From: an uncultured Dehalococcoidaceae bacterium
GTDB lineage: Bacteria; Chloroflexota; Dehalococcoidia; Dehalococcoidales; RBG-16-60-22
Direction: 5' to 3'
DNA: 64,000 nucleotides
Assembly (NCBI GenBank): GCA_964468755.1
Contig: CAYXWH010000001.1
Span: forward strand, 15,148 to 79,147
The notes under the pieces: generated by a model
What the model was told of the DNA's origin: nothing
Database searches by the model: none
What the model saw: only the letters and a program-made list of their open reading frames with translations
Part shown: piece after piece, positions 10,108 to 47,543 of the stretch
How the letters are laid out: every line of letters starts with the position of its first letter
Numbering within the stretch: the first letter of the stretch is position 1
Translations under genes and position numbers: made by a program

Positions 10108-12081
10108 TTGAGCGGTTATCAGGAGCTTATTGGAAACCATACCTTGAAATGGCCCTATCCCGTCAATTACGGTAAGGAGACCGAGGTCAGTACCGATGTC
10201 CTCATCATCGGCGGTGGTGTTGCCGGTTGCCATGCCGCCATCAATGCCGCTAAACAGGGAGTAAAGGTTGCCGTGGTTGACAAGGCTTCAATCTACCGGA
10301 GCGGCTCGGGGGGAGCCGGCGTTGACCACTGGGGCGGTGCTTTGACCAATCCACGCTCCAGAACCACCCCTGAAGAATCGATAGAACTAGCGGAAGGGCC
10401 GTTTATTCCAAGCGACTATTCTCTGGGACATATCCGTTACATTACTTCCAAGGAAAGCTATGATGCCCTCCTTGACATGGAACAGATGGGGATGAAAATC
10501 CGGGACGTGGACGACGAGTTTGTCGGCGCTCCATTCCGGGATGAAGAGACCAGGCTCATGTTTGCCTACGATTACGATAACCCGACCTGTATCCGCGTCA
10601 TGGGATCTAATGTTAAGCCCTGCCTGTATAACGAGCTCAAGCGACTGGGTGTAGAGCTCCGGGAGCATATCATGGTGACCGGACTGCTCAACGAGGGGGG
10701 CAAACAGGGGGGTAGGATAGTCGGCGCCACCGGGGTGAATATCAGGACCGGCGAGTTCTACATCTTCAAGGCGAAAGCTACCATCCTCGCCACCGCCCAG
10801 CCGTTGCGCATCTGGATATTCAACACCGAGCTGGTGGGGTCATATGTTGAGCACGATGACCCGAACCTCGCCGGCGACGGCGATGCCATGGGCTGGCTGG
10901 CCGGCGCCGAGCTGACCATGATGGAGCGGAGCCAGGATTCATCCGGCCCGTTCCGCTATCCGCCTTACGGCACCGGAAACGCGAGCAACACCTGGTTTGC
11001 CTGCAGCATGGTGGACGCTGACGGCAAAGAAATCCCCTGGGTCGACGGTAATGGTAACGTACTGAAAACGGTTGAAGAACGATACCATAACGGCGGAGAA
11101 GGGGGACGCCGGGGCAATGGCGCCCGGCTTATCCCTGACCTGGCCGAGCGCATCACGAAGGGGGAATACAAGCTCCCCCTGTATGCTGATCTGCCCGGCA
11201 TGCCGGAGCATGAGCGAAGGGCAATCTTCGGCTTAATGGTGGGGAACGAGGGCAAGACCCGCATGGCAGTATATGACATGTACACCAGGTATGGATTTGA
11301 CCCGGACAAGGATATGCTCCAGGCTAACGTTTTACCACCGGCACTTGCCGGAAGAATGGGCCCCTGGTGGGATATGAAATCAGCCCTGGCCTCGGCGCCG
11401 CAGTGGCGGGCGACTGCCTTTATCGGCGGCGGCGGACTGCTGGTCGACTGGGATATGAAGACGACGCTCGAAGGTTTATATGCCGCCGGTGCCCAGACCG
11501 CTGGCGGCGGTGGTCATGCCGGGGCGGCTGCCACCGGCAGGTATGCCGGCAGGAAAGCGGCTGCCTACATAAAGGAAGCCGGAGACCCCGTTATCGACCG
11601 CACGCAGGTGGATGAGGAAAAAACCCGGGTCTATTCTCCCGTCGGCCGCAAGGGCGATATCGGCTGGAAAGAGTTGCATGGAGGGATTGCCCGCATCATG
11701 CAAGACTACTGCGGTGAGTACAAGAGCGAGGAAGTCCTCAAGAGGGGGCTGTGGTGGCTGAACAGTATCCGGGAGAGCGAGGCGGAGCGGGTCTATGTCC
11801 GCAACCCGCATGAGCTGGCGCGCTTCCTGGAGACAATGGTACGACTCACCGTAGGTGAGCTAATCATGAACGCATCACTGGCGCGGCAGGCAAGCAGCGA
11901 GCCGCTGGACTTCTGGCGTCTGGACTACCCCGAGGTTGACCCGCCGGAATGGCAGAGGTTTGTCACCATCAGGCTGGAAAACGGCGAGGCTAAGGTGGGT
12001 GAGCGGCCGTTTAAATTCTGGCTGCTGCCGCCCAACGCCCCCACATATGAAGAAAACTACCGGCAGCACTGCGGACTTTAA
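10108..12081 (+). CDS. AprA-like FAD flavoprotein (adenylylsulfate-reductase-alpha / fumarate-reductase superfamily), copy 1, with no adjacent ferredoxin gene
   Basis: 657 aa with a TTG start 7 nt after GAGGAGG. AprA-like blocks include the FAD fold DVLIIGGGVAGCHAA, FYIFKAKATILATA and the C-terminal LDYPEVDPPEWQRFV. It is a close paralog of 18245-20218. Confidence 0.7.
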   Translation: MSGYQELIGNHTLKWPYPVNYGKETEVSTDVLIIGGGVAGCHAAINAAKQGVKVAVVDKASIYRSGSGGAGVDHWGGALTNPRSRTTPEESIELAEGPFIPSDYSLGHIRYITSKESYDALLDMEQMGMKIRDVDDEFVGAPFRDEETRLMFAYDYDNPTCIRVMGSNVKPCLYNELKRLGVELREHIMVTGLLNEGGKQGGRIVGATGVNIRTGEFYIFKAKATILATAQPLRIWIFNTELVGSYVEHDDPNLAGDGDAMGWLAGAELTMMERSQDSSGPFRYPPYGTGNASNTWFACSMVDADGKEIPWVDGNGNVLKTVEERYHNGGEGGRRGNGARLIPDLAERITKGEYKLPLYADLPGMPEHERRAIFGLMVGNEGKTRMAVYDMYTRYGFDPDKDMLQANVLPPALAGRMGPWWDMKSALASAPQWRATAFIGGGGLLVDWDMKTTLEGLYAAGAQTAGGGGHAGAAATGRYAGRKAAAYIKEAGDPVIDRTQVDEEKTRVYSPVGRKGDIGWKELHGGIARIMQDYCGEYKSEEVLKRGLWWLNSIRESEAERVYVRNPHELARFLETMVRLTVGELIMNASLARQASSEPLDFWRLDYPEVDPPEWQRFVTIRLENGEAKVGERPFKFWLLPPNAPTYEENYRQHCGL

Positions 12082-12155
12082 ACCCGGCATGTTGCTATCG
12101 CATAAAATAATTAAATAAAAACTATTTAAATAGAGAAAGGGGATACATCATCGCT

Positions 12156-14117
12156 ATGAGCAAATTACTGTGGGAACCTACCGAGGAAACAATAAAACAG
12201 GCTAACATGACCAGATTTATCAACTTTGTCAATGAAAAACAAGGCATGAAACTAAACTCGTATGATGACCTCTATCAGTGGTCAATCGAGAATATACCTG
12301 AGCTCTGGGGAGCCGTCTGGGAATTCACCGATGTCAAAGCTTCGCGCGGCTATGACCGGGTGGTCGACGACCTCAATAAGTTCCCCGGTGCCACGTGGTT
12401 TGAAGGCGCCCGGCTGAACTTCGCCGAGAACCTGCTCCGCTACCGCGATAACCACACGGCATTCATCTTCAGGGGCGAGGATAAGAAATATACCCGCATG
12501 ACCTACGCCGAACTCTACTATACAGTAGCTCGCCTCGCCAAATCATTGCGTGAAATGGGGGTGAAGCCCGGGGACCGGGTAGCCGCCTATATGCCCAACT
12601 TGATAGAGACCGCTGTTGCCATGCTGGCGGCTACCAGTATCGGGGCGGTCTGGGCATCCTGCGCCACTGACCTTGGCCCGGGAGCTGTAATCGACCGTCT
12701 CGGGCAAATCGAACCGAAGGTCCTTTTCACCGTTGACGGCTATTTCTACAAAGCCAAGACCTTCAGCTCACTGGCCAACGCCGCCGAAATCGCCAACGGG
12801 ATACCGTCTCTGGAAAAGGTCATCGTGGTCCGTTATACCGAAGCGGACTCGGATATCAGCCAGATTCCCAACTCCGTCTACTATGACGTCTTTACCTCCC
12901 AGGAAGAAAAACCCGAGATTGAATTTGAACAACTCCCATTTATGCACCCGTTACTCATCATGTTCTCTTCCGGAACCACCGGAAAGCCAAAGTGTCTCGT
13001 CCAGAGTGCCGGAGGTATCCTGCTTAACCACGCGAAAGAGCTCATGATTCAGTCCGACGTCAAACGCGAGGACAAAATCTTCTACATCACCACCTGTAGC
13101 TGGATGATGTGGAACTGGCTGATCAGTTCTCTGGGAATCGGGGCGACAGTCATCCTCTACGACGGCAACCCCATGTACCCGGACGCCGGTGCCATGTGGA
13201 AGCTCATCCAGGATGAAAAGATAACCATTTTCGGCACCAGTGCCAGCTTCATTAACTACTGCAAGAGCGAAGGACTACAACCGGGCAAGGACTATAACCT
13301 TTCATCGATGCGGGAGATGTGTCAGACCGGCTCGGTGCTTTCCAGCGATGGTTTTGAATACATCTATGAGGCGATCAAGAAAGACCTGCACTTCAATTCC
13401 ATCGCCGGTGGTACCGACATTAACGGTTGCTTCGCCATCGGAAGCCCCACTGTCCCCGTTTACGCCGGTGAGCTACAGAGGTGGGGATTGGGCTTCAAGA
13501 TGAAATGCTACAACGAGAACGGCAAACCGGTAGTCGACCAGCTGGGTGAACTCGTCTGTGAAGCGCCCGCTCCGCCCATGCCACTCTACTTCTGGAATGA
13601 CCCGAACAATGAACGGTACATGGATGCATACTTCAACGTATATCCGGGAATCTGGCGCCACGGCGATTATGTCATGGCCCACAGTGATACCAACGGGGTA
13701 ACCTTCTTCGGTCGCTCCGATGCCCTCCTCAAACCTTCGGGAGTACGTATCGGCACGGCGGAAATCTATAATCAGGTAGAACTGCTGGATGAAATCGCCG
13801 ATAGCCTGGCGATAGGTCAGGACTGGAAGGGCGACCAGCGGGTGATACTTTTTGTGAAACTCGCCGAGGGATACGAACTGACCGAGGAACTGGAGAAGAA
13901 GATTAAAACGACCCTCCGGGTGAAAGCCTCGCCCCGGCATGTTCCGGCACGAATTCTCACCGCTCCCGACATTCCTTACACCCTTAATGGCAAGAAGGTG
14001 GAGACTGCGGTTACCAATATCATTCAGGGCAAGCCCGTATTGAACCGGGATGCCTTGAGCAACCCCGAATCGCTGGACTTCTACGAAAATATTGTCCCCG
14101 AACTGGAGAGGGCCTAA
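12156..14117 (+). CDS. aacS: acetoacetate--CoA ligase (acetoacetyl-CoA synthetase)
   Basis: 653 aa. The N-terminus MSKLLWEPTEETIKQANMTRF, the AMP-binding motif MFSSGTTGKPKC and the overall length fit the AacS subfamily of acyl-CoA synthetases. Confidence 0.75.
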   Translation: MSKLLWEPTEETIKQANMTRFINFVNEKQGMKLNSYDDLYQWSIENIPELWGAVWEFTDVKASRGYDRVVDDLNKFPGATWFEGARLNFAENLLRYRDNHTAFIFRGEDKKYTRMTYAELYYTVARLAKSLREMGVKPGDRVAAYMPNLIETAVAMLAATSIGAVWASCATDLGPGAVIDRLGQIEPKVLFTVDGYFYKAKTFSSLANAAEIANGIPSLEKVIVVRYTEADSDISQIPNSVYYDVFTSQEEKPEIEFEQLPFMHPLLIMFSSGTTGKPKCLVQSAGGILLNHAKELMIQSDVKREDKIFYITTCSWMMWNWLISSLGIGATVILYDGNPMYPDAGAMWKLIQDEKITIFGTSASFINYCKSEGLQPGKDYNLSSMREMCQTGSVLSSDGFEYIYEAIKKDLHFNSIAGGTDINGCFAIGSPTVPVYAGELQRWGLGFKMKCYNENGKPVVDQLGELVCEAPAPPMPLYFWNDPNNERYMDAYFNVYPGIWRHGDYVMAHSDTNGVTFFGRSDALLKPSGVRIGTAEIYNQVELLDEIADSLAIGQDWKGDQRVILFVKLAEGYELTEELEKKIKTTLRVKASPRHVPARILTAPDIPYTLNGKKVETAVTNIIQGKPVLNRDALSNPESLDFYENIVPELERA

Positions 14118-14160
14118 CCACAGCGCAAAGCCGGATAGTGCTGTCTACAATTTAATACAT

Positions 14161-15351
14161 TTAATAACCCAGCCTGGAGAGTCGGTCGGCTAATTTCTTA
14201 TCCCGGTCTGCCACCCGGTCTATCCGAACCACTGCCGACTTACCCGTTTCTTCCGGTATCCACTCAAATTTGCCCGGGTCAAGCTTATGGCCACTCAGCC
14301 CGGGATAATCAGGGGCATAGCGATAGGCCCGGAAAACCTGGTTGTTCAAGCCAAACACGGGGTGTTCATAGTAAAAGGGGCTGATGAACTCCCAGACGGT
14401 CTCCCCGTCGGGGGTTACCTCAAATATTCGGCCCTTATGTCCCTCACAAACCAGGGTATTCCCGTTGGGCAACCTCTGGCAGCCGGATACTATGGACGAC
14501 TGGAAATTGTGCCTGGTTTTATCCATGTATTCCCACTCGATTTGACCGGTTTTGGGATTCATTTCAACCACACGGGAATAGCTGATATGGGCTGTCCTCC
14601 GGTGGTGACCATTGTCGAAGACCAGGATGTTCCCGTTTTCCAGCAGCGTCGGGTCATGCGGATGAGCCAGCTCCCCGGCTCCCCAGCGCCACTTAATATC
14701 GCCGGTGGTACGGTCAATAATGACCATCCAATCAGTATGGCGGAACGTGGTTAAAATATCTCCATCAGGCATCACAAAACAGGCATTGCCGTGAGTCCAT
14801 TCGGCACGGCCACAGAGGGGGCAGATAATATCAACTTCCGGGTCAAGGTGTTCATAACTCAGCCACTCCCATACAACCTCACCATCCCGGGAAATCTCAC
14901 GGAAGGAATCCGCCCACATCACCCCGTTATGCTCAGTGCCCGGAACACCACCCTTAACCCCGGCGGTAATATCATCCGGCACCTGCACCCATCTCAGATA
15001 CATGGTATTGCCATTGTCCAGTCGGCAAAAGTCATGGTGGTGGTACGTGTCTTCATACTTCCAGATAATGTTGCTATCCCAATCCGCTTCGAGCAGTACA
15101 CCACCGGCCCCACCCATATCCGTCAGGGGGCCATCGAGAACCCTCCCTGCATAGAGCAGGTTACCATTGGGTAGCAGCTTCCCGTATTCTCCGGGGATGT
15201 AGGGTAATTTCCAGCGGTGGACAAAGCGGCCCTGCATGTCCACCAGCCACACCATTCCAGTACCCCACGGAGCGAAAAGCGTATACCCGTGAAATGATTT
15301 CGACGAGTCAAATCTGGTTACCAGCTCCGGTTTTCCTTCTTTAAACTGCAT
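14161..15351 (-). CDS. aryl-sulfotransferase (ASST)-like beta-propeller protein, cytoplasmic (no signal peptide)
   Basis: 396 aa. Repeated W-rich propeller blades (LLPNGNLLY, RLDNGNTMY, LENGNILVFDNG, RLPNGNTLV) are typical of the arylsulfotransferase family. Confidence 0.55.
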   Translation of the reverse strand: MQFKEGKPELVTRFDSSKSFHGYTLFAPWGTGMVWLVDMQGRFVHRWKLPYIPGEYGKLLPNGNLLYAGRVLDGPLTDMGGAGGVLLEADWDSNIIWKYEDTYHHHDFCRLDNGNTMYLRWVQVPDDITAGVKGGVPGTEHNGVMWADSFREISRDGEVVWEWLSYEHLDPEVDIICPLCGRAEWTHGNACFVMPDGDILTTFRHTDWMVIIDRTTGDIKWRWGAGELAHPHDPTLLENGNILVFDNGHHRRTAHISYSRVVEMNPKTGQIEWEYMDKTRHNFQSSIVSGCQRLPNGNTLVCEGHKGRIFEVTPDGETVWEFISPFYYEHPVFGLNNQVFRAYRYAPDYPGLSGHKLDPGKFEWIPEETGKSAVVRIDRVADRDKKLADRLSRLGY

Positions 15352-15408
15352 AATAACTCCCCCTTTTTCATTACAGTCTTGAGATAGCCCCGATATTTAT
15401 CCGTATCC

Positions 15409-16743
15409 TTACCGGTAAACACCATACTCTCTAGCCGCTTCGGTTATGGCATGGAGATTATCCGGACTTGCCTCATCAATTACCACGCCGGCATCCAGGA
15501 TAAAACCGCCACCTTTACCGGCAGTCTCTATGAGGTTCCGGCAATACTCCCTGGTCTTTTCCGGTGTACCGGAGACCAGCAGCGACGAAGGAATATTCCC
15601 CATGATACACGCGGTTTGCCCAAGCACTTCCCTGGCTCTGGCCATATCGGTCTGGTCGAAGTGCCACACTACCTTACCCCGGGGCAGGTCTTTGATAATG
15701 TCCAGTCGCGAATTGTAGCCACCCTCAGCAAATAAAGAGGGTATCAGTCCTTCATCAATCAAGCCCAGGATTACCTTCTTGAGGGTAGGCCAGTAAAATG
15801 TCCGGTACTGCCCGGCCGACATAAAGCCGTCAGCGCCTTTATGCAACGGTATAAATATTACCGGAACTCCCGAAGTGTCGGCTGCGGAGACGCCGCGCTT
15901 GATTTCCATGGCAACCAGACCCTCCATAGCTTCCAGAAGCTTGTCCGGCTGCCGGTACATATCCATTATTATCCCCTGAGTACCCCGCAGGGTATCACCG
16001 ATGGTGTCAAATGGCGCCTTGGCCATGCCGCCATTGAACAGCGGCAGTCCCGATGCCATCGCCGCTTCATCACATTTATTAATGATATCCATCCATTTAC
16101 GTGATTCGCTGCCCGCTTCCAGTAGCGCCTGGAACGCAGCCTGGACTTCCGGCCGCCCCAACGGCGCCAGGCTGGGCGCAGTAGCCGGCATTTCGATGAT
16201 ATCGGTAAAGGGCACTAACTTCGCCAAAGGCTCCAGGGTACCGAAGATGCGGGGCATATAGACCCTCAGCCAGAAATCGGACGGGTCTTGAATGAGGATA
16301 TCGTATTCATCGGCTTTCATGTATTCCGCCTCGACACACTGATATGACGTCATCGGCGAGGTGCCATGGCCGGGCCATCGGTATAATCTATAATCAATGA
16401 TTTCCAACGCTTTTCCGGGGCCAATCGCCCCGGGACTGAAAAATACATCCGGGTCAAAGTCACGGGCAAACTGCAACCAGGCATGGCTCAGTTTTTTATA
16501 GTCGTACATGACGGCTTCCGGCGTTAGTCCGGCGTAAAAAGCCGGGTAAAAGCCCATAGACAGGTGGACCGGGACCCGGTCCGGCTGGCGCAAATTGATG
16601 GCATCAACCAGCCTGGTCACCCGTTCCCGGTAGCGTTTCTCAGCCTCCGGACTGGTAAACACCAGTCCTTCCGGGGAAAGCCACTGCTTAAACCGCTCTT
16701 GCCACTTTTCTTCGGCAGATAGTCCCGCCCATTGCTTTTCCAT
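15409..16743 (-). CDS. uroporphyrinogen decarboxylase (URO-D) family protein (methyltransferase/decarboxylase-like)
   Basis: 444 aa. The N-terminal helical extension followed by a TIM-barrel-like body (DRVPVHLSMGFYPAFYAG...IPLHKGADGFMS...GGGFILDAG) resembles non-HemE URO-D family members. Confidence 0.55.
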   Translation of the reverse strand: MEKQWAGLSAEEKWQERFKQWLSPEGLVFTSPEAEKRYRERVTRLVDAINLRQPDRVPVHLSMGFYPAFYAGLTPEAVMYDYKKLSHAWLQFARDFDPDVFFSPGAIGPGKALEIIDYRLYRWPGHGTSPMTSYQCVEAEYMKADEYDILIQDPSDFWLRVYMPRIFGTLEPLAKLVPFTDIIEMPATAPSLAPLGRPEVQAAFQALLEAGSESRKWMDIINKCDEAAMASGLPLFNGGMAKAPFDTIGDTLRGTQGIIMDMYRQPDKLLEAMEGLVAMEIKRGVSAADTSGVPVIFIPLHKGADGFMSAGQYRTFYWPTLKKVILGLIDEGLIPSLFAEGGYNSRLDIIKDLPRGKVVWHFDQTDMARAREVLGQTACIMGNIPSSLLVSGTPEKTREYCRNLIETAGKGGGFILDAGVVIDEASPDNLHAITEAAREYGVYR

Positions 16744-16934
16744 AGCTACTTCACGCCTGCCCGTCCTTTTTAACAGCTCCGCTATGGCATCGCGCCCGGG
16801 CCACTCACCGGGTCTTCAGCCATATAACTATATATTATTACGTTATCACGATACCCAAAATACAACTCGCGCTACTGTCACCTAGAGCTAAAGGGATTGC
16901 CAAGCCCGACCATCCGAATTTTCTGTATAAATAA

Positions 16935-17705
16935 CTATATACGACTGGTCAACCCACCATCCACATAGAGTATTTGTCCGGTAATGAAATTAGATGCCGG
17001 CGAAGCCAGAAACAGGGTAGGTCCAACAATATCCTCAGGCATCGCCCAGCGGCCAATCGGGATGCTCTCCCTTAGCTGCCGGGCTCCCTCAGGACTTTCC
17101 AGAACGGAACGGGTAAATTCAGTCTCGACCACGGTGGGAGCAAGGGCATTGACCAGGATATTGTGTTTTGCCCAGGCACAGGCGAGCGCCTTGGTAATAA
17201 GATTGACCGCAGCCTTGCTGTCGCAGTAGCCAAGACCGCCATCCGGTGGCGCGTAGGAGCCTCTCACCGAAGAAATATTGATGATTCTACCGCCACCCTG
17301 CTTAATCATCATTCTGCCCACTGCCTGGCAACAGAGCAGGGTGCCGCGGGTATTAACATCAATAACCTTCTGCCATTCTTCAATCGGAAAATCGGTGGCG
17401 TCATAACCCCTGATATTTATTCCGGCGGCATTCACCAGAATATCAATGCGGCCAAAGGTATCTATGGCTTTTGTTACCATGCCCGTTACCGACTTCTCAT
17501 CGGTAACGTCTACCTTTACGGCAAGCGCCTTTCTTGCCAGCGCCCTCACCTTCTCGGCTGCCGTCTCAGCCACTTCCAGCCTGCTATCGGCAGTAACTAT
17601 GTCAGCGCCATGCCCGGCAAACCCCAGAGCTTGGGCACTGCCAATACCACCAGCGCCGACTATCATGGCGACCTTCCCGGCAAAGTCAAAAACATCACTC
17701 ATCAT
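16935..17705 (-). CDS. SDR family oxidoreductase (FabG-like), paralog of 21175-21939
   Basis: 256 aa with a glycine-rich GAGGIG motif, NAAG, and catalytic S...YCDSK. Confidence 0.85.
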   Translation of the reverse strand: MMSDVFDFAGKVAMIVGAGGIGSAQALGFAGHGADIVTADSRLEVAETAAEKVRALARKALAVKVDVTDEKSVTGMVTKAIDTFGRIDILVNAAGINIRGYDATDFPIEEWQKVIDVNTRGTLLCCQAVGRMMIKQGGGRIINISSVRGSYAPPDGGLGYCDSKAAVNLITKALACAWAKHNILVNALAPTVVETEFTRSVLESPEGARQLRESIPIGRWAMPEDIVGPTLFLASPASNFITGQILYVDGGLTSRI

Positions 17706-17853
17706 TTTTCCCCTGGATTCATACTATTTTACTATACGGCGTTGTTATCCCCTCCGAAACACACTATCACACCCAACCGCACTATTGTTCAGGTTAGCCA
17801 TCTTGAAGTTAACCCTGAATAACACACTATCTATACAGGCACTGTCCAACCCC

Positions 17854-18204
17854 TTAGCCCACCGGCGGTCTGGTGTTGGGTGGCGGGGGGTTCTTCATGC
17901 CGATGCGGAAGTACTCGCCGGTCGCCTTGCGCTTCCAGCCAACCCGCTGGTTCAACGGGTGCTCCATCCGTATCGCCCCCGGTACCGGACACGGCTCAAC
18001 ACAGCAACCACCAAACCAGCACTCATCAGGATAGAGCACTATAGGCGGTTTGCCCTTCTCCAGATTGGGCACCAGCACATCCGTCCGGCATACCTCCACG
18101 CAATTATTACACCCGGTACAGAGCTCCGGGTCGATGATTATTGCCTGGCATGGGGTCATCGGATTGGGGACCATGTAGGCCTCATTGTAGACTTCGCTCA
18201 CCAT
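17854..18204 (-). CDS. AprB-like 2x[4Fe-4S] ferredoxin subunit, copy 1
   Basis: 116 aa (MVSEVYNEAY...). It has CTGCNNCVEVC and CWFGGCCVEPCP cluster motifs, then a basic beta-hairpin tail WKRKATGEYFRIG as in APS reductase beta. AGGAGG precedes the ATG at 18204. The longer 157-aa ORF in the track is rejected. Confidence 0.65.
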   Translation of the reverse strand: MVSEVYNEAYMVPNPMTPCQAIIIDPELCTGCNNCVEVCRTDVLVPNLEKGKPPIVLYPDECWFGGCCVEPCPVPGAIRMEHPLNQRVGWKRKATGEYFRIGMKNPPPPNTRPPVG

Positions 18205-18244
18205 TAGACAAGACCTCCTTATTTTTAAAGTAACCCGGTAAGAG

Positions 18245-20218: not shown

Positions 20219-20407
20219 TTCCTTCCTCCTTGAACACATTAAGATTAGTATCCTGAACGGCTATACACCGGCAGCCGTTGTCTACCAATTTTCTTAAATG
20301 TTTAATATATTTATGTGGAGGATTGTCTCATTACTTTAGCTAGAAATGATTTCTGTACGGATTATCTATAATACCACCGGCGAATGTCAACAGTCCAGTA
20401 GTGAACA

Positions 20408-21939: not shown

Positions 21940-22000
21940 TAGCATAGTTAAAAAAGCAATAATTTTGCGGAACCTTTTACCACAAAAGGAGTAAGCGCAT

Positions 22001-29838: not shown

Positions 29839-29841
29839 ACG

Positions 29842-33279: not shown

Positions 33280-33280
33280 G

Positions 33281-33910: not shown

Positions 33911-33916
33911 TGCTCC

Positions 33917-37719: not shown

Positions 37720-37795
37720 TATACTACCTCCTGCCCATAGAGTTCAAGAATCTCAAGTTAGTCCATGCTACCACCAGTTCAAAAAACAGTGACCA

Positions 37796-39403: not shown

Positions 39404-39640
39404 TTATGATTCTCCTTTCCCACGCTTTTCAGCAAACAGGCACGGATATAACATCATTCCAAGCCTGCCGAAAGTATGACCGCGCAGCACGGTTTCTCAT
39501 TTTCGATGACGGGAAAAACACCAAGGACAACCCTGCGGACAGCAGAGCCCTCACACCAGGGATGACGCTATCCAGCACATTGTCATATCGACCAACATCC
39601 ATTGTTTTATGCTCGATATGGTAATTTTTTATCCATTTTG

Positions 39641-39669
39641 TTGACATTCTATAACTCAAAAGTGATAAT
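39641..39669 (+). promoter_or_regulatory. sigma70-type promoter TTGACA-17-GATAAT abutting the MFS start codon
   Basis: The -35 is at 39641-39646 and the -10 at 39664-39669. The ATG at 39685 lies 16 nt after the -10 with no SD. Confidence 0.5.
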
Positions 39670-39684
39670 AATACATAACGACTT

Positions 39685-40908
39685 ATGAAGTCAAGCCATT
39701 ACTGCTGGTATATTCTGTCTCTGGCTACGGCAACCCATATATTTGCGGTTGCCATGCCTATGATGTGCATGCCCGTGCTTTTCAGCGAGATAGCCGGTGA
39801 CCTTAATTTGAATCTTGTACAGATAGGCACGGTCTGGGGCGCCGGTTACCTGGCAGGAGCAATCAGCGGTCTTGGTGGCGGCTTGATTGGCGACCGGTAC
39901 GGGACCAAACGCACCCTCATAACTACCTGCCTGCTCGGCGGAATCACCGGAGCACTGCGGGGTATAGCCACCAGTTTCATCGGGCTATCGACAACCGTGT
40001 TCTTCTTTGGCTTCATGACCACCACGATATCATTAAACGCGCACAAAGTTGCCGGCGAACAGTTTTCCAGGCACCGCCTGGGAATTGCCAACGGCATCCT
40101 CTCCGCCGGTATGGGCATCGGCTTTATGCTGGGGTCAATGATCAGCGCCACGGTACTTTCCCCGCTACTCGGCGGCTGGCGAAATGTCCTCTTCCTCTAC
40201 GGAAGTATTTCCATATTATTTGGTTTTCTCTGGTTTCTTCCCGGGCGTGAGCCCGACCAGCTTGAAACCACGCCCTCCCCCACTGTAATCCCGTTTCGCC
40301 AGGCACTAGTGAAAGTGCTCCCCATGAAAAATGTGTGGCTCATTGCCCTGGTTAGAATGTTTTTTACCGCCGCTACTGTGGGATACGCCGGTTACCTGCC
40401 CCTTTTCCTTCGAGGAGTGGGCTGGACGGCAGTCAGTGCCGACGGTGCCCTGGCTGCCGCCACCGGGGTAAGTACGATAGGGGTAATAGCCCTGACCTTG
40501 CTCTCAGATAAGCTGGGGTTGAGAAAAGTGGTCCTCATCGCCACGGCGCTGGTAGTGACTACCGGCATCGGTCTACTCTCAGTACTGCATAATATGATGG
40601 TCTGGCTGATAGTGGTACTGGTGGGCTTTGTCCGTGAAGGATTTGTCGCCACCACCATCACCACAACCATGGAGACCAGGGGTGTTGGCAGCCAGTACGC
40701 CGGAACAGCCCTCGGAATCACCGTAGCCTTTATGAACCTGGGCGGGTTTTTCGGTCCGCCCCTCGGCAATAGTCTGGCAACTATTAATGCCGGCCTGCCC
40801 TTTGCCTTCTGGGCTGCCATGGGAATCATTACTCTATTGGTAATCCTGTTCGTGGAGGAGACGGGGCAAAGGAAAGGCGGTTTGACAAGCACAAATCAGG
40901 TAACATAG
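39685..40908 (+). CDS. MFS transporter (paralog of 42485-43735)
   Basis: 407 aa with 12 TM and an MFS loop motif GLIGDRYGTKRTL. Confidence 0.8.
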   Translation: MKSSHYCWYILSLATATHIFAVAMPMMCMPVLFSEIAGDLNLNLVQIGTVWGAGYLAGAISGLGGGLIGDRYGTKRTLITTCLLGGITGALRGIATSFIGLSTTVFFFGFMTTTISLNAHKVAGEQFSRHRLGIANGILSAGMGIGFMLGSMISATVLSPLLGGWRNVLFLYGSISILFGFLWFLPGREPDQLETTPSPTVIPFRQALVKVLPMKNVWLIALVRMFFTAATVGYAGYLPLFLRGVGWTAVSADGALAAATGVSTIGVIALTLLSDKLGLRKVVLIATALVVTTGIGLLSVLHNMMVWLIVVLVGFVREGFVATTITTTMETRGVGSQYAGTALGITVAFMNLGGFFGPPLGNSLATINAGLPFAFWAAMGIITLLVILFVEETGQRKGGLTSTNQVT

Positions 40909-41076
40909 AATTGAAGACTGCACCTGCGGAAAAGGTTAAAATACTCAATCCGAATTTCACCCCGCTTGTTGAGCGATGTCTTACCCACCCAACGGCAAAA
41001 TACTGCTAACCCGGCAGTTTCCAAAAAAGAAGACGCTGGTCTGTCTTTGAGCTGGAGAGCAAGGAATAAGCCCGGC

Positions 41077-41328
41077 ATGAGTGAAAAGATAAAGGTCCTG
41101 GTTCAAGCGACAATTTTGTTTATTATTACCGTGTTGCTGATATGGCATGCCGTCAACTGGCATGTCACCGGAATGCACCTTCAGATGTTCGACTGGATTG
41201 GGACCGATAAGACCTATATCGCCGTGCTTTACAATTTGGGTTTGATGCTGGTAACCGGCATGGCACTGGGATTCCTTACAGATAGAATTGCTACCCTGCT
41301 AAGGCACGGGAAAAGAGGGGACAAATAA
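41077..41328 (+). CDS. small 2-TM membrane protein preceding the TauE/SafE gene
   Basis: 83 aa from ATG 41077 (MSEKIKVLVQATILFIITVLLIW...). It ends 25 nt before the TauE start. The function is unknown and the call is weak. Confidence 0.35.
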   Translation: MSEKIKVLVQATILFIITVLLIWHAVNWHVTGMHLQMFDWIGTDKTYIAVLYNLGLMLVTGMALGFLTDRIATLLRHGKRGDK

Positions 41329-41353
41329 CCATTAATACTAGTGGTTAAACAAA

Positions 41354-42442
41354 ATGATAACATTCCCAGCATTATCCGGAGTTGAGATCAACGTATTTTT
41401 ACTCGTCTTCATCGGACTTGGCGCCGGGATTCTCAGCGGTTTTTCCGGCGTCGGCGGCTCATTTGTGGTGACACCGGCCCTGATTATTATTGGCTTCCCG
41501 GCCAATTACGCCGTAGGCACCAGCCTTGCCTGGGTTATGGGCAATGCCATCGTCGGCACCTTCCGGCACAGAAAACTGGGTAACGTTGATATGAAGCTGG
41601 GGCTGGTCATTATCGTGGCAGTCATGGGAGGCGTGGAAATCGGGGTGAGAATTATCAACCGGGCTACCGCCGCCGGGATGGCTAACGAGGTAGTACTCTC
41701 CATTTCCACATGTGTTCTGCTTATCGTAGGCACCTATACCCTGCTGGAAAGCATCCGCAGGAAGCGATACCTTGACCGGGCACTGGCTCAAGGGGCCAAA
41801 TCAGCGCCGGAGACAAATGGCACCTCTCTTTCCCGGAAGCTACAGAGCATTTACCTGCCGCCGAGAATACATTTTGCAAGGTCGGGGATTACCATATCCC
41901 TGTGGATTATACTCGCCGCAGGTTTCATCACCGGCATGATAGTGGGTATTATCGGGGTTGGCGGCGGTTTTATTATGGTGCCGTCACTGGTATACCTCAT
42001 CGGCCTGCCATCGTTCATGGCCGTCGGCACTGATCTGTTCCAGATTATCTTCTCCGCCGCTTTCGGTTCTATCCGCCACACCATGAGCGGCAATGTGATT
42101 ATCTTTGCTTCCCTGATTATGCTTATTGCCTCCAGCGTCGGGGTACAGTTCGGGGCACTGGTCACCCGCTATGTACGCGGTGTCTCGGTGCGATTTGTCC
42201 TCGGCCTTACCATAGTAATCGCCGCTGTGGGCGCCATCCTCAAGCTGGCAAATACCCTGGTTACAACCACCACTGTAGGACTTGAGATAGGGTCAATCGT
42301 GGTTATTTTTAGCGGTATGGGAATAGCCATAGTGATAATTGCCTTACTTTTTATTATGGCTCTTCGCTCCCGCTCCGGTCATTCCATTCCACCCTTTATA
42401 AAGGCTTTTCTGGCTACCGGCGGTTCCCCTGCGGAAAAGTAG
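41354..42442 (+). CDS. TauE/SafE family anion (sulfite-exporter family) permease
   Basis: 362 aa with a duplicated 4-TM architecture. GILSGFSGVGGSFVVTP and GIIGVGGGFIMVPSLVYL are the family's G-rich motifs. Confidence 0.8.
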   Translation: MITFPALSGVEINVFLLVFIGLGAGILSGFSGVGGSFVVTPALIIIGFPANYAVGTSLAWVMGNAIVGTFRHRKLGNVDMKLGLVIIVAVMGGVEIGVRIINRATAAGMANEVVLSISTCVLLIVGTYTLLESIRRKRYLDRALAQGAKSAPETNGTSLSRKLQSIYLPPRIHFARSGITISLWIILAAGFITGMIVGIIGVGGGFIMVPSLVYLIGLPSFMAVGTDLFQIIFSAAFGSIRHTMSGNVIIFASLIMLIASSVGVQFGALVTRYVRGVSVRFVLGLTIVIAAVGAILKLANTLVTTTTVGLEIGSIVVIFSGMGIAIVIIALLFIMALRSRSGHSIPPFIKAFLATGGSPAEK

Positions 42443-42484
42443 TCATTCTCTATACCGGCGACTTTATCACACTTTCCGCAAATT

Positions 42485-43735
42485 CTATAAGCGGTCGGAC
42501 GGTATCTCCGCGGTCGCCGACATTCTCACGCCCTTGCCCACCCCGGACTCCCTTATGAAATAGAAGCTAATCAGGGCAACTGCCGCCCACACCGCCCAGA
42601 ACATGAAGGGGACATTCAGTCCGAAGCTGGCAAAGCTGTTGCCCAGCGGCGGAGAGAACACATTGCCAAGCTTGCCAAGGGTATAAATCAACCCCAGTGC
42701 CGTACCGGTATAGGCTGCCCCAACCCCTTCCGTCTCGATAACCATGGTAATATAGAGCGCCATAAAACCATCGCGAGCCATGCCGGCTATCAATACCGCC
42801 ACCCATACCAGCGGGCCGGACACTACCGACAGTAGACCGACGCCGATTACCGCCATCAGGGCAGCAATAAAAAGGAGCGGTTTTCTTATGCCAAGCCGGT
42901 CGGATAACAGGGTGAGCGGGATAGCCGTCGCCATGCTGATTCCGTGGAATGAGGCCAGGGCACCATCGGCACTGGCTGCTGTCCAGCCAATCTCACGCAA
43001 ATACAGTGGCAGATAACCAAGCATCCCCTGATAACAGCCGCCTACACCGAGCACAACGAGAGCGATAACCCACACCTGCTTGATTCGGACCACTCTGGAA
43101 ACCGCCCGGCGGAACGGAACGGTACCGCTATCACCGGAGGCTTGCCCCACCTCAGCGGGCTTCGTTCTAGTCAGAAACCAGAGGAAACTGATAACCAGGG
43201 AAACAGCCCCGTAGAGAAAGAGGACATTTCGCCAGCCACCGAGTAGCGGGGAAAGTACCGTGGCGCTGAACATCGACCCCAGTAAAAAACCCAGCGCCAT
43301 TCCCACGGCAACAACGCCATTGGCCAGCCCCAGACGCTTTCCGGTGAACCACACGCCACAGGTTTTGTGCACTCCCATCGGCACCATTATCGTAGCCAGA
43401 CCGAAGAGCACCACTGTTGCCGCCAGACTGGTAAATCCAACGGCTAACCCTCGTAGTCCACCCGCCAGGCCAGCCAGCAGGCAACCGAAAGCGAGCATGC
43501 GCTTCGTGCCAATCCGGTCACCAATCAGTCCGCCAAATAGACTTACAAAAATACCGGCCACGCCGAACATGCCCCATATCGTGCCTACCTCAACCAGGCT
43601 CAAACCCAGCTCATCAGATATCTCGCTGAAGAGCACCGGCATGCACATCTGGGGCATGGCAACCGAAAAGGTATGGGTAAGCGCTGCCAGAGACAGGATA
43701 TACCATTTGTAGTTTGAGTGATGACTGTTTTTCAT
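42485..43735 (-). CDS. MFS transporter (paralog of 39685-40908)
   Basis: 416 aa. KWYILSLAALTHTFSVAMPQMCMPVLFSEI here matches CWYILSLATATHIFAVAMPMMCMPVLFSEI in the paralog. Confidence 0.8.
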   Translation of the reverse strand: MKNSHHSNYKWYILSLAALTHTFSVAMPQMCMPVLFSEISDELGLSLVEVGTIWGMFGVAGIFVSLFGGLIGDRIGTKRMLAFGCLLAGLAGGLRGLAVGFTSLAATVVLFGLATIMVPMGVHKTCGVWFTGKRLGLANGVVAVGMALGFLLGSMFSATVLSPLLGGWRNVLFLYGAVSLVISFLWFLTRTKPAEVGQASGDSGTVPFRRAVSRVVRIKQVWVIALVVLGVGGCYQGMLGYLPLYLREIGWTAASADGALASFHGISMATAIPLTLLSDRLGIRKPLLFIAALMAVIGVGLLSVVSGPLVWVAVLIAGMARDGFMALYITMVIETEGVGAAYTGTALGLIYTLGKLGNVFSPPLGNSFASFGLNVPFMFWAVWAAVALISFYFIRESGVGKGVRMSATAEIPSDRL

Positions 43736-44388: not shown

Positions 44389-46488
44389 ATGCATGATTTC
44401 TTCTTTAACCCGGAAAGCATAGCGGTTATCGGGGCATCTCGCCAGCCGGGCAAGGTTGGCTATGACGCCCTGAAAAATTTAATAGACGCCAACTACGGGG
44501 GTAAAATATACCCGGTAAACCCGAGCGTTGATAACATCCTCGGACTGAAAACGTACCATAACGTACTGGATATCGAGGATGAGGTTGACCTGGCACTGGT
44601 AATCGTTCCGGCCCCTCTGGTCATCAATACCTTTAAGGCTTTGATAGACAAAGGGGTGAAGGGAGCGGTAGTCATTACGGCCGGTTTCAAGGAGATAGGC
44701 GGCAAAGGGGCGGAAATGGAGCGGGAACTGGTCGAGCTTTGCCGGGGTAAAATCCGGGTTATTGGCCCCAACTGCCTGGGTATCATTGATACCTATGCCA
44801 ACCTTAACGCCTCATTCGCTCCGACCATGCCACGCCAGGGCAAGATAGGGTTCATTTCCCAGTCGGGCGCCATGGTTAGCTCTATCCTTGATTTTGCCGC
44901 CGGTAGAGACATGGGGTTCTCCAAGTTTATCAGCATGGGCAATAAAATGGACCTTGACGAGACACACTTCCTGGAGATTCTCGGCGAGGATAAAAACACC
45001 AGGGTCATCATCGGCTATATTGAGAGTGTCACCGACGGCAAAAAATTCATCGATGTGGCCGAGAAGATATCCAGGAAAAAACCGGTTATTCTCTTTAAAT
45101 CAGGCGTATCCGCGGAAGGAACCAGAGCCGCCTCTTCCCATACCGGGGCGTTGTCCGGTCTCGACAGGGCTTACGAATGTGCCTTCAATAAGTCGGGCGT
45201 AATCAGAGCCAGGTCAATAGAGGACCTGTTTGACTGGGCTGAGGTATTCGCTTCGCAGCCACTCCCAACCGGGAAACGAATCGCCATTGTCACCAATGCC
45301 GGTGGTCCGGGGATAATCGCCACTGACAAAGCCTCCGAGGAACAGCTACTGCTGGCCTCGCTCAGTACCACCACGGTGAAAAGTCTGCAGGAGTTACTGC
45401 CGCCAGCGGCATCTGCCTATAACCCCATTGATGTCCTCGGCGATGCTGACAGTACCCGCTACGAGGGCGTTATCGAGGCAGTGGTTCAGGCTAATGAAGT
45501 GGACGGACTCGTCGTTATCCTGTCACCGCAGGCAAATACTCAAATTGAAGAGACAGCAAAAATCGTATCCAATTTCGCATACACTTCCCCCAAGCCGATA
45601 ATCACCTCCTTCATGGGGCAAGACCGGGTGGCTACCGCGTCCAGTATCTTCAAGAAGGGCAGAGTCGCCAACATCGCCTTCCCTGACCGCGCCGTGCGGG
45701 CTATGTCAGTCATGGCTAGCTACAGCCAGTGGAAGCGGCAGGAAAAGAGTGAAGCCCTTATCAAGAATATCAATAGCAGAAAAGTTGAAGAGTTTCTGAG
45801 AGCGAAGCTGAGCCAGGACAAGATAAAACTGGCCGACTTCGAGGCAAGGGAACTGCTCGAGCTTTGTGATATCCCGACATTACCCACCGCCCTGGCCAAT
45901 ACCGCCGATGAGGCGGTGAGCCATGCCCGTGAAATGGGGTTCCCGGTGGTTATGAAGGTCTATTCCCCCGAGATTTTACACAAGACAGACGTCGGTGGGG
46001 TTAAAGTGGGACTGAGAACCCCGGAGGAAGTGGTCGGAGCCTTTGAAGAAATCATGGTGAACGTCAACAGATATCTCCCCCAGGCGCCGGTAGTGGGCAT
46101 TACCGTGCAGAAGATGGTAGATGGAGGCAAGGAGGTTATTGCCGGCTTCTCCCGCGATCCACAGTTTGGCCCGCTCATGATGTTCGGACTGGGTGGTGTC
46201 TACGTTGAAGTCCTGAAAGATGTCAACTTTGCCCTCACCCCGCTTAGTAAGAGGGAGATAGTAGAGCTGGTATCCGGGATAAAATCCTTCCCGCTGCTGA
46301 GCGGGATAAGGGGCGAAAAAGAAAAAGACCTCGACGCGCTCTACGAAGTTATCGCCACTCTGTCCACTTTGGGAGAGCAGTATCCGGAAATTGTAGAGAT
46401 GGAAATAAATCCGCTGGTGATAAAAGATAAGGGCGAAGGACTGTGTGCAATTGACGGCAGACTAATCTTAAAGGGGGCACCACAATGA
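44389..46488 (+). CDS. ADP-forming acetyl-CoA synthetase (acetate--CoA ligase, fused alpha/beta; NDP-forming acyl-CoA synthetase family)
   Basis: 699 aa. It has a CoA-binding N-terminus PESIAVIGASRQPGKVG, succinyl-CoA-synthetase-like ligase domains and a C-terminal ATP-grasp. Confidence 0.85.
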   Translation: MHDFFFNPESIAVIGASRQPGKVGYDALKNLIDANYGGKIYPVNPSVDNILGLKTYHNVLDIEDEVDLALVIVPAPLVINTFKALIDKGVKGAVVITAGFKEIGGKGAEMERELVELCRGKIRVIGPNCLGIIDTYANLNASFAPTMPRQGKIGFISQSGAMVSSILDFAAGRDMGFSKFISMGNKMDLDETHFLEILGEDKNTRVIIGYIESVTDGKKFIDVAEKISRKKPVILFKSGVSAEGTRAASSHTGALSGLDRAYECAFNKSGVIRARSIEDLFDWAEVFASQPLPTGKRIAIVTNAGGPGIIATDKASEEQLLLASLSTTTVKSLQELLPPAASAYNPIDVLGDADSTRYEGVIEAVVQANEVDGLVVILSPQANTQIEETAKIVSNFAYTSPKPIITSFMGQDRVATASSIFKKGRVANIAFPDRAVRAMSVMASYSQWKRQEKSEALIKNINSRKVEEFLRAKLSQDKIKLADFEARELLELCDIPTLPTALANTADEAVSHAREMGFPVVMKVYSPEILHKTDVGGVKVGLRTPEEVVGAFEEIMVNVNRYLPQAPVVGITVQKMVDGGKEVIAGFSRDPQFGPLMMFGLGGVYVEVLKDVNFALTPLSKREIVELVSGIKSFPLLSGIRGEKEKDLDALYEVIATLSTLGEQYPEIVEMEINPLVIKDKGEGLCAIDGRLILKGAPQ

Positions 46489-47543
46489 TTGAGCTACTCA
46501 TCGGTTCGACAACCAAGTATGCCGGAAAAACGATGGCAGCACTGGCGATTCTCGATTTCTTGAAAAGCAAAGGCCTCAAAATAGGCTATTTTAAACCCAT
46601 CGGCAAGAACTTTGTCCTCAAGGAAAAGGAAAAGGTCGAAGAGGATGTGCTGCTGATCAAAGAGTACTTTGCCCTGGAGGATGACCTGTCCCTCATGTGT
46701 CCCTTTTACCTTGACCGGGCTGACTATATTAACCTCGCTTTGGGCAAGCTGGATAATGCCGGCAGCCGGATATACCAGGCATACCAGGAGCTTAAAAAAG
46801 GGAAGGATGCGGTACTGGTTGGCGGCGGTCAGGACCTGTATGAAGGGTATTCTATCGGTGTTTCCAACACACACTTTTTGGAACGACTTAATATGCCGGT
46901 TGTCATGCTTGATTTACCTGTTTTCGGAGAGGTGAACCTGGATAGAATAGTGGCAGCGCAGGAAAGGGTCGGGGATAAGCTCCGCGGCGTTATTCTCAAT
47001 CACCTGCCGCCCTCGATGGTTGACTTCGTTAACAAGTACTTTGTTCCCTTCCTGGAAGGGAAAGGCATAAAGGTCTGGGGACTGATACCAAGCAATCCGA
47101 AATTAAGTTCACTCACCATTGAAGAAATTAGGGGTGTGCTTGGCGGTGAGGTTATATGCTGTGAAGATAAAAAGGAAGAAAGCGTGGAGACTTTTATGCT
47201 TGGTGCCATGAGTGTTGAGAGTGCCCTTAAATACTTTCGCTCCCAGGCAAACAAAGCAGTCATTACCGGCGGTGACCGGACGGATATCCAGCTCGCCGCC
47301 CTGGAAACACCAACCAAAGTACTGATACTCACCGGTGGGATGTACCCGAACAGCTCCATCATCACCGCCGCCCAGGAAAAGAACGTCCCGATAATGGTGG
47401 CCGGAAATGATACCATGACCACCGTCGAGAAACTGGAGTCGGTAATCCGCAAGGTTAGCATCAGCGGTAAAAGAATCAAGGAAAGTATCGATACTTTTTA
47501 CCAATATGTTGATACCAGCTACCTTGAAGGACTCTTGGAGTAA
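46485..47543 (+). CDS. phosphotransacetylase N-terminal-domain-like protein (BioD/CobQ-like + DRTGG domains, no PTA catalytic domain)
   Basis: 352 aa. It has a GGDRTDIQLAALE (DRTGG-type) block, and its ATG overlaps the ACD stop codon (ATGA at 46485-46488). Confidence 0.6.
   Translation: MIELLIGSTTKYAGKTMAALAILDFLKSKGLKIGYFKPIGKNFVLKEKEKVEEDVLLIKEYFALEDDLSLMCPFYLDRADYINLALGKLDNAGSRIYQAYQELKKGKDAVLVGGGQDLYEGYSIGVSNTHFLERLNMPVVMLDLPVFGEVNLDRIVAAQERVGDKLRGVILNHLPPSMVDFVNKYFVPFLEGKGIKVWGLIPSNPKLSSLTIEEIRGVLGGEVICCEDKKEESVETFMLGAMSVESALKYFRSQANKAVITGGDRTDIQLAALETPTKVLILTGGMYPNSSIITAAQEKNVPIMVAGNDTMTTVEKLESVIRKVSISGKRIKESIDTFYQYVDTSYLEGLLE

Follow-up and report, generated by a model that had tools for sequence, protein, structure and literature searches.

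The described systems closest to the locus reported here are the pyrogallol-phloroglucinol transhydroxylase AthL/BthL of Pelobacter acidigallici (PDB 4V4C, 4V4D and 4V4E) and the phloroglucinol pathway of Clostridium scatologenes, which was reconstituted from the reductase PGR (short-chain dehydrogenase/reductase family, SDR), the ring-opening enzyme DPGC, the dehydrogenase TfD (3HCDH family) and the lyase TAL (BKACE family, the beta-keto acid cleavage enzymes) (Zhou et al. 2023, PMC10470551). DPGC belongs to the "cyclase" family and is a Mn2+-dependent ring-opening hydrolase (PMC10470551). Among the Chloroflexi, RBG-2 and RBG-1351 were predicted to convert pyrogallol via phloroglucinol to acetate with AthLS and an ADP-forming acetyl-CoA synthetase (ACS) (Hug et al. 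2013, PMC3971608), three AthL copies were reported in the marine Dehalococcoidia cell DEH-C11 (Wasmund et al. 2016, PMC4959651), and Zhou et al. include Chloroflexi RBG bins and Dehalococcoidia among the sources of DPGC homologues in their Data set S3 (PMC10470551). Here we analysed a 64,000-nucleotide stretch (the window) of contig CAYXWH010000001.1 from an uncultured Dehalococcoidaceae bacterium, with ~29 genes between 10.1 and 47.5 kb (open reading frame (ORF) listing and Pfam/NCBIfam scans). We propose, with a probability of roughly 80%, that its part from 20.4 to 32.3 kb, together with an acetoacetate-CoA ligase (AacS), is a trihydroxybenzene catabolic cluster of the Dehalococcoidia, in which the gene for the ring-opening cyclase is missing from its usual place. 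Because fermentation of pyrogallol to acetate had been predicted for Chloroflexi as early as 2013, with AthL following in 2016 and the DPGC homologues in 2023, the claim of an initial annotation that such a pathway had not been described for the Chloroflexota fails. The genes of the proposed route and of the cluster are the following.

12156..14117, + strand: acetoacetate-CoA ligase (AacS, AMP-forming; TIGR01217 851 bits, cut-off 521; NF002937 893 bits, cut-off 639)
20446..20877, + strand: Lrp/AsnC-family regulator heading the cluster (Pfam AsnC_trans_reg and HTH_24)
21175..21939, + strand: phloroglucinol-reductase-like SDR, PGR candidate (adh_short_C2, 206 bits)
22001..22339, + strand: cupin of 112 amino acids (aa; Cupin_2)
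22660..23610, + strand: 3HCDH-family enzyme, candidate (S)-3-hydroxy-5-oxohexanoate dehydrogenase (TfD), 316 aa (3HCDH_N and 3HCDH)
23684..24619, + strand: BKACE, candidate triacetate (3,5-dioxohexanoate):acetyl-CoA acetoacetate-lyase (TAL), 311 aa (BKACE, 362 bits)
24648..25238, - strand: NTPase_1/DUF2478 P-loop protein (Pfam)
25547..27016, + strand: Peripla_BP_6 solute-binding lipoprotein (Pfam; signal/lipobox-like N-terminus)
27244..29838, + strand: large (Mo-bisMGD) subunit of pyrogallol-phloroglucinol transhydroxylase, AthL orthologue, 864 aa (PDB 4v4c_A match)
29842..30672, + strand: small (Fe-S) transhydroxylase subunit, BthL orthologue, 276 aa (4v4c_B match)
30734..31438, + strand: polytopic membrane protein, 234 aa (hydrophobic sequence; travels with the transhydroxylase)
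31604..32326, + strand: TorD/NarJ-family molybdoenzyme chaperone (PF02613, 88 bits)
44389..46488, + strand: ADP-forming acyl-CoA synthetase, fused alpha-beta (TIGR02717; ATP-grasp_5, Succ_CoA_lig and CoA_binding)

In the proposed route, phloroglucinol would arise through AthL/BthL, which would isomerise pyrogallol and perhaps further tri- or tetrahydroxybenzenes, and the SDR would reduce it with NADPH to dihydrophloroglucinol. After ring opening, the 3HCDH-family enzyme would convert 3-hydroxy-5-oxohexanoate to triacetate, from which BKACE would form acetoacetate and acetoacetyl-CoA with acetyl-CoA as the second substrate. Acetoacetate would then be activated by AacS, a thiolase encoded elsewhere would provide acetyl-CoA, and the ADP-forming acyl-CoA synthetase would convert acetyl-CoA to acetate with formation of ATP. 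Sequence shows what the transhydroxylase and AacS are, and establishes family and synteny for the SDR, the dehydrogenase and BKACE; the activities named are candidate activities, and we infer the identity of the substrates, a flux towards acetate and the part taken by the synthetase. By our own calculation on the stoichiometry of the pathway, the AMP-forming AacS would make the acetate route lean, with about one net ATP per phloroglucinol if three acetyl-CoA pass through the ADP-forming synthetase.

The genomic company of these genes was surveyed with an alignment of the cupin, which retrieved relatives from the genomes of 348 species; of these, the best 80 loci, in Dehalococcoidia, Desulfobacterota and a single Bacillota (labels such as L001 denote surveyed loci or contigs), were examined for neighbours, counted by tblastn with the window proteins at a 60%-coverage filter. 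Since it was seeded on the cupin, this survey gives a biased view. The nearest loci in the one-genome-per-species collection almost all came from metagenome-assembled genomes (MAGs) of Dehalococcoidia or Dehalococcoidales, and proteins with at least 90% identity to the window molybdoenzyme carry Chloroflexi or Chloroflexota MAG names, so the earlier guess of a Chloroflexota-like origin was right and can be narrowed to the class Dehalococcoidia.

By sequence, AthL/BthL is an orthologue-grade match to the transhydroxylase of P. acidigallici. AthL aligned with 4v4c_A at 1140 bits (residues 11-861 on 7-866; 58.6% identity over 845 aligned positions), and all nine residues checked (H144, Y152, R153, D174, S175, W176, W354, Y404 and Y560) were identical in both proteins. 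We take S175 to be the Mo ligand and the other eight to be residues of the substrate/cosubstrate pocket, roles that were reportedly described in the structure paper of Messerschmidt from 2004. AthL carries the AhtL-like first domain (PF21423, 85 bits), and neither an Fe4S4 domain nor a twin-arginine motif was found in it by Pfam scan and sequence inspection. BthL matched 4v4c_B at 225 bits over residues 3-255 and combines a Fer4_11 domain with a C-terminal CarboxypepD_reg-like domain. Among the 80 loci, AthL was present in 28 and BthL in 30. The isomerisation step that the initial annotation gave to an AthL/BthL-like enzyme is thus supported, and the second molybdoenzyme that it added to this step, which scores below all cut-offs and is unlinked elsewhere, is not.

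Several genes accompany the transhydroxylase. Homologues of the 234-aa membrane protein (52-62% identity) lie beside AthL/BthL in at least 11 loci, or 11 of 80 by neighbour count; the protein had no Pfam or NCBIfam match, evolves under a ratio of nonsynonymous to synonymous substitution rates (dN/dS) of 0.10, and is a candidate substrate permease. The NTPase_1/DUF2478 gene was found in 13 of the 80 loci, always close to AthL/BthL, and its product may have a role in cofactor or enzyme maturation. The chaperone, on which TIGR03482 and the TorD models score under cut-off, keeps its position in L001-L003 and L094, as the Lrp/AsnC regulator does in L001-L005, L010 and L095. Homologues of the Peripla_BP_6 protein were located near the cluster in 11 of 80 loci; the gene has no adjoining permease or ATPase in the window, and in L050 its homologues sit with a candidate five-gene block resembling an ABC transporter. 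This protein has a long Pro-Ala/Pro-Ser repeat linker behind its signal/lipobox region, and gene callers in other assemblies set its start ~90 codons downstream (399 aa). As a separate observation, the Black Sea Dehalococcoidia MAG contig JADHXB010000001.1 (L091) encodes AthL/BthL at least 90% identical to those of the window in a different context, among genes for a 2-oxoacid dehydrogenase complex, for malic enzyme and for an unrelated 118-aa cupin, ~14-27 kb from the PGR-DPGC-cupin-TfD-TAL cluster of the same genome (L008), suggesting that the transhydroxylase genes were rearranged or transferred. The 118-aa cupin was considered and rejected, being only 25% identical and of a different family.

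The downstream enzymes recur together in dozens of genomes. In 67 of 80 loci, an SDR homologue of 67-80% identity has a cyclase-family DPGC homologue and the cupin beside it, and TfD and TAL are near the cluster in 46 and 42 of the 80, respectively. For TfD, gene callers set the start at 22660 (316 aa), the longest ORF beginning at 22534, and the best PDB match is 4om8, a free-acid dehydrogenase; the best PDB match of BKACE is 3lot (384 bits). AacS, with homologues near the cluster in 10 of 80 loci, passed both curated cut-offs, which bears out its earlier assignment to acetoacetate activation. The ADP-forming synthetase, proposed earlier for ATP conservation, could be confirmed at family level, with a marginal pass on TIGR02717 (568.6 bits, cut-off 567.15) and 256 bits on ATP-grasp_5; it is not a conserved cluster neighbour across the 80 loci, and its tie to the pathway is suggested by analogy with the prediction of Hug et al. 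(2013). The operon of SDR, cupin, dehydrogenase and BKACE was first read as the ring reduction and cleavage unit, which is supported for most of it, by the joint conservation of reductase, dehydrogenase and BKACE; the cupin is not the known ring-cleaving enzyme, the characterised one being the cyclase-family Mn hydrolase (PMC10470551).

A number of observations weigh against the proposed route. The SDR carries the motif SRK at the site where PGR has its NADPH motif TR(S/N) (PMC10470551), its best curated models are of the gluconate/KduD type, and its likeness to the peptides of the C. scatologenes reductase (CsPGR) is moderate only, so that its assignment as PGR rests mainly on synteny. BKACE scored 414.5 bits on the model NF053538 ("3,5-dioxohexanoate:acetyl-CoA acetone transferase"), just under the cut-off of 430, and belongs to a 311-aa subtype with TGNI in place of the TGAW (Trp16) of the C. 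scatologenes lyase (CsTAL). The scanned ORFs of the window include no thiolase. With an AMP-forming AacS, activation consumes two ATP equivalents, a poor bargain for a fermenting organism, and a membrane-bound complex of the Psr type near the cluster hints that respiration, not fermentation, may support the organism. Finally, tblastn with both cyclase types against the 64-kb window gave nothing with E <0.1, and no DPGC was present within 10 kb past either window end (~84 kb examined in all), by which a copy elsewhere on the contig within the fetched flanks was rejected.

The absence of DPGC is best seen against the usual gene order. Among 71 loci with enough upstream sequence, 60 have a cyclase gene of 254 or 312 aa immediately upstream of the cupin, with the motif HxGTHxDxPxH and a weak arylformamidase match, and the 312-aa type matches the proteomics peptides VYVDLTHPFSADIPR and FGDLEEIGCWGTWEPCHK of the C. 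scatologenes cyclase (CsDPGC); the usual order is therefore PGR-DPGC-cupin-TfD-TAL. In the window, a spacer of 61 bp (21940-22000) separates the SDR from the cupin at this site, and since the cyclase-family DPGC that usually lies there is deleted, no known enzyme of the locus accounts for the hydrolytic ring opening. The same cyclase-less order was observed in L001-L006, six metagenome contigs whose cupin is identical, and in two relatives, L094/L095 (93% identical) and L010 (79% identical). In L010, from a Dehalococcoidaceae MAG (CAZAYK010000083.1), the PGR-cupin spacer contains a cyclase deletion scar (L010:1384-1610) that reads MGKVTLVDLSHPPGGKCPLW/DPCHNIL: residues 1-20 of the cyclase continue at residue ~197, the junction lying at a repeated PLW, and a frameshift comes after it. 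Further cyclase genes, cut short or with an internal deletion, stand directly upstream of an intact cupin at L041:2866-2937, L047:9487-9783 and L065:2263-2762, and a weak remnant at L050:4879-4965, in the same position, probably reflects decay; these loci belong to MAGs of Desulfobacterota and Dehalococcoidia, L050 being a compact Desulfatiglandaceae cluster with the order binding protein-cupin-TAL-SDR-TfD-AthL-BthL. A "split" cyclase in L043 looks like a frameshift and may be an assembly error. The cyclase has thus decayed in at least four further MAG loci, which become five or six cases if the clade of the window is included; there, no trace is left of the way in which the gene disappeared. 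These losses appear to be independent.

The genes that remain are under purifying selection, with dN/dS values against L094 of 0.16 for the SDR, 0.05 for the cupin, 0.08 for TfD, 0.10 for TAL, 0.06 for AthL and 0.20 for BthL, and of ~0.08-0.10 against L010, which indicates that the operon is in use without a DPGC of its own. Most likely, the gap is filled by a DPGC copy elsewhere in the genome. Several Dehalococcoidia MAGs carry at least two PGR-DPGC-cupin loci (two each in CAYFSE01 and CAZCZJ01), which makes supply in trans the simpler explanation. In L016, L026, L040 and similar Dehalococcoidia loci, the PGR-DPGC-cupin triad occurs without TfD or TAL and is followed by a family-III CoA-transferase and an SDR, or by an OYE/BaiCD-like flavoenzyme and an AacS-like ligase; such triads may represent alternative downstream routes for 3-hydroxy-5-oxohexanoate.

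The cupin that stays behind when the cyclase is lost is a widely conserved companion of phloroglucinol clusters. It has 1173 homologues, the top 120 of which share at least 70% identity with it, and 47 positions are invariant among 23 sequences of 70-93% identity to that of the window. In a library of representatives at 50% identity, 226 relatives were retrieved at E <=1e-10, nearly all of 100-120 aa. A cupin-cyclase fusion was sought as a sign of coupling and none occurred among 150 representatives, the longer matches being tandem bicupins or proteins with N-terminal extensions. The canonical metal motif HxH...E...H is absent from the cupin, with the Glu alone kept. An AlphaFold (AF2) model (pLDDT 81.5) had the generic small cupins TM1459, RemF and DddK as fold neighbours, and the fold search gave no functional lead. 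The only named relative is Rv1717 of Mycobacterium tuberculosis, whose model NF050094 matched the window protein end-to-end at 72 bits (E 3e-20), well under the cut-off of 175. Rv1717 presumably lies amid SDR, fadB3, cyclase and DUF849 genes (Rv1714-Rv1718). It was reported as a cell-wall beta-galactosidase (PMC7873859), an annotation that, given the genomic company of the family, deserves re-examination.

In C. scatologenes, a 113-aa Cupin_2 protein, CSCA_1081 (A0A0E3GQA0), adjoins PGR (CSCA_1082) and DPGC (CSCA_1083); mass spectrometry of gel bands detected it in cells grown on phloroglucinol (Data set S1 of PMC10470551), and it is absent from the text of that paper. Its peptides NDSIFIGPNEGR and EMINETNTVATVLVIISYK align with PPNEGREILNKTNKTVSMLVIVNY of the window cupin. 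Among the papers available to the literature search, none joins a cupin with phloroglucinol reductase or dihydrophloroglucinol. The survey was also run in reverse, starting from the cyclase, and gave 69 informative loci on metagenome contigs, of which 33 had the cupin directly downstream and 17 elsewhere in the locus, leaving 19 with none in the available sequence; L131, L155 and L148 are complete clusters that have no cupin. As cyclase-less and cupin-less clusters were both seen, both single-loss forms exist.

Most simply, the cupin would have an accessory role, with DPGC encoded at another locus. A more novel alternative, which we hold to be unlikely, is that this Rv1717-family cupin is an overlooked fifth component of the pathway: where DPGC has been deleted, it would either carry out the opening of the dihydrophloroglucinol ring or render the cyclase dispensable, in which case the operon would be complete as it is. 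This would fit the presence of the cupin in clusters of Dehalococcoidia, Desulfobacterota and Bacillota, including the characterised one of C. scatologenes, the decay of the cyclase beside an intact cupin in L010, L041, L047 and L065 (with the weaker trace in L050), and the purifying selection on the cyclase-less operon (dN/dS 0.05 for the cupin). The cupin-less clusters with a cyclase would fit it too, if either protein sufficed, and CsDPGC, at 1 per second, had the lowest rate of the enzymes in vitro (PMC10470551). However, the four-enzyme reconstitution runs without a cupin (PMC10470551), the protein has no canonical metal-binding histidines, and ring opening by a cupin has no precedent; the frequent occurrence of several PGR-DPGC-cupin loci per Dehalococcoidia MAG favours supply in trans, and the seeding on the cupin biased what was seen. 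In its plainest form, as a simple stand-in for DPGC, the idea was rejected, because cyclase and cupin normally coexist across the 80 loci, and it survives as a minority rival.

Beyond the cluster, the region contains modules that the initial annotation had joined with it into a single island-scale route. Every ORF that it called was present in its place with the domain content ascribed to it, and its description of the region as paralog-rich is accurate, as seen in the two SDRs (21175 and 16935, 59% identical), the two AprA-like flavoproteins (86%) and the two major facilitator superfamily (MFS) transporters (52%). The further features are listed below.

10108..12081, + strand: AprA/PAPS-reductase-like flavoprotein, 86% identical to its paralogue at 18245-20239
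14161..20239, - strand: five-gene operon divergent from the cluster (flavoprotein, 2x[4Fe-4S] ferredoxin, SDR, URO-D-family and arylsulfate sulfotransferase (ASST)-like genes)
14161..15351, - strand: ASST-like beta-propeller (PF05935, 80.8 bits, above the gathering cut-off)
15409..16743, - strand: URO-D-family, MT1-type methyltransferase-like protein (best PDB match CdmB, 9rui, 131 bits)
18245..20239, - strand: AprA/PAPS-reductase-like flavoprotein heading the five-gene operon (Pfam, NCBIfam)
32323..36664, - strand: Psr/Phs/Arr-like molybdoenzyme with 4Fe-4S subunit and NrfD anchor (PhsA model 247 bits, cut-off 694)
37796..43735: Sdh/Frd-like flavoprotein (535 aa), two MFS transporters and TauE/SafE-family permease (Pfam/NCBIfam)
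39685-40908 and 42485-43735: the MFS transporters, 52% identical (domain scans)
41354-42442: TauE/SafE-family permease (domain scans)
Region 44389..47543, + strand: Pta-N-terminal-like (AAA_26 and DRTGG) gene overlapping the acyl-CoA synthetase (domains)
56315..58873, + strand: mobA-moeA-mobB, molybdopterin guanine dinucleotide (MGD) cofactor synthesis (NTP_transf_3; MoeA_N/MoCF_biosynth/MoeA_C; MobB)

The left flank of the region is an Opp-type ABC transporter and the right flank is housekeeping (DegV, PlsY, leucyl aminopeptidase, mobA-moeA-mobB, RNase III, two tRNAs and fatty-acid synthesis). Base composition along the window showed no sharp boundary and no integrase was found among the window ORFs scanned; the region is a gene neighbourhood with no demonstrable mobile island. 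The domain scan confirmed the mobA-moeA-mobB genes, to which the supply of the bis-MGD cofactor had been assigned, and Rfam and tRNA scans gave nothing relevant, with no Moco riboswitch found.

That all modules from 10.1 to 47.5 kb form one route, from uptake through trimming and two molybdoenzymes to acetate, appears improbable to us. The modules are physically close, and the operon at 14.2-20.2 kb, divergent from the cluster regulator and carrying the 59%-identical PGR paralogue, is the most plausible addition to the pathway among them. Its URO-D-like protein resembles CdmB, the substrate-activating methyltransferase of a corrinoid-dependent chloromethane system that is described as close to O-demethylases (PMC13222342), and has homologues near 6 of 80 loci; no corrinoid protein was found for it among the window ORFs scanned. 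In 15 of 80 loci, a relative of the 535-aa flavoprotein (~30% identity) is encoded no more than 10 kb from a PGR-DPGC-cupin triad. Immediately left of the window, a second ASST-like gene (402 aa) is paired with an Sdh-like flavoprotein gene (528 aa; L089:4288-7139), a pairing that recurs. Against a single route, the AprA-like flavoproteins scored only 98-101 bits on TIGR02061 aprA (101 for 10108-12081; cut-off 642), with the PAPS reductase alpha subunit of a methanogen as best PDB match (8a8o, 118 bits), and the operon ferredoxin matched other ferredoxin families only in NCBIfam. The ASST-like protein had no NCBIfam match, a best PDB match of 35 bits, and a homologue near 1 of 80 loci. The trimming of phenolic substituents by ASST-, URO-D- and AprAB-like proteins, as first suggested, is not supported, none of them being a conserved neighbour. 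The AprA-like flavoprotein and ferredoxin were near 0 of 80 loci at the 60%-coverage filter; unfiltered AprA-like matches comprised one partial match in L026 (45-48% identity) and two at 30-32%.

The Psr-like complex shares with Psr/Phs the three-subunit layout of a Mo subunit, a 4Fe-4S subunit and NrfD, scores far under all cut-offs, and has ArrA (164 bits) and thiosulfate/polysulfide reductase (155 bits) as best PDB matches. Its Mo subunit (33917-36664, - strand) has no twin-arginine motif in the N-terminal 70 residues, an uncommon feature in this clade, which suggests that the enzyme faces the cytoplasm or that its start is misplaced. This complex is not a conserved cluster neighbour, and the AprA-like, ferredoxin, TauE, MFS and ADP-forming synthetase genes likewise occur near essentially none of the 80 loci. 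With little or no conserved linkage and low family scores, placing the peripheral modules in one route is conjecture.

It is very improbable that the operon serves another beta-keto acid (with a dehydrocarnitine- or lysine-type BKACE) and that the molybdoenzyme is another phenol (trans)hydroxylase, for instance of resorcinol or hydroxyhydroquinone: 3HCDH and BKACE pairs do serve several pathways, the carnitine dehydrogenase models score 127-141 bits, the SDR is not close to Clostridium PGR, and transhydroxylase homologues include resorcinol hydroxylase, but BKACE reaches only 276 bits on its next-best family, the lysine-pathway Kce model, as against 414 on the 3,5-dioxohexanoate model, the orthologous operons of most relatives hold a clear CsDPGC orthologue that matches the CsDPGC peptides, and the listed active-site residues of the transhydroxylase are identical.

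The window contributes two things: a transhydroxylase physically linked to the downstream genes and to AacS, and an architecture without DPGC. The linkage in the Dehalococcoidia firms up the genome-based prediction of 2013. Dehalococcoidia are abundant in anoxic sediments, and the anaerobic breakdown of trihydroxybenzenes derived from tannins and flavonoids affects the persistence of phenolic carbon in such sediments and in peat. The trihydroxybenzene cluster also raises the question of why such operons repeatedly lose the only known ring opener but retain the small, conserved cupin, and of the role that this protein has; were the cupin the ring opener, it would be a non-homologous replacement for a key C-C cleavage step.

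Compared with the known systems gene by gene, the window has orthologues of the P. acidigallici transhydroxylase and candidate counterparts of the C. scatologenes set except DPGC. With P. acidigallici AthL/BthL it shares the two-subunit architecture, an alpha subunit that has the AhtL-like first domain and no N-terminal Fe-S domain, a beta subunit with Fe-S clusters and a C-terminal beta-sandwich, and the absence of a twin-arginine translocation motif. It differs in that the genes form one cluster with phloroglucinol genes, a TorD-like chaperone, an NTPase and a membrane protein, and in its host, a member of the Dehalococcoidia. The likeness to C. scatologenes covers the SDR reductase, the 3HCDH dehydrogenase, the BKACE lyase and the adjoining cupin of ~113 aa (CSCA_1081), as well as the product logic of acetoacetate plus acetoacetyl-CoA. 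Unlike that cluster, the window locus has no DPGC, carries AacS in place of the CoA-transferase CtfAB, contains no thiolase, Pta, Ack or butyrate genes, has a 311-aa BKACE subtype versus the 281-aa CsTAL and an SDR of a different PGR-like lineage, and is joined to a transhydroxylase. Rv1717 is likewise a small stand-alone cupin (~113-116 aa), with a reported activity unrelated to phenols. The prediction of Hug et al. (2013) for Chloroflexi, with the AthL copies of Wasmund et al. (2016), amounts to the same proposal at the level of the phylum, in which AthLS and an ADP-forming acetyl-CoA synthetase would turn pyrogallol into acetate; those studies predate the identification of the downstream enzymes, which the window links physically to the transhydroxylase.

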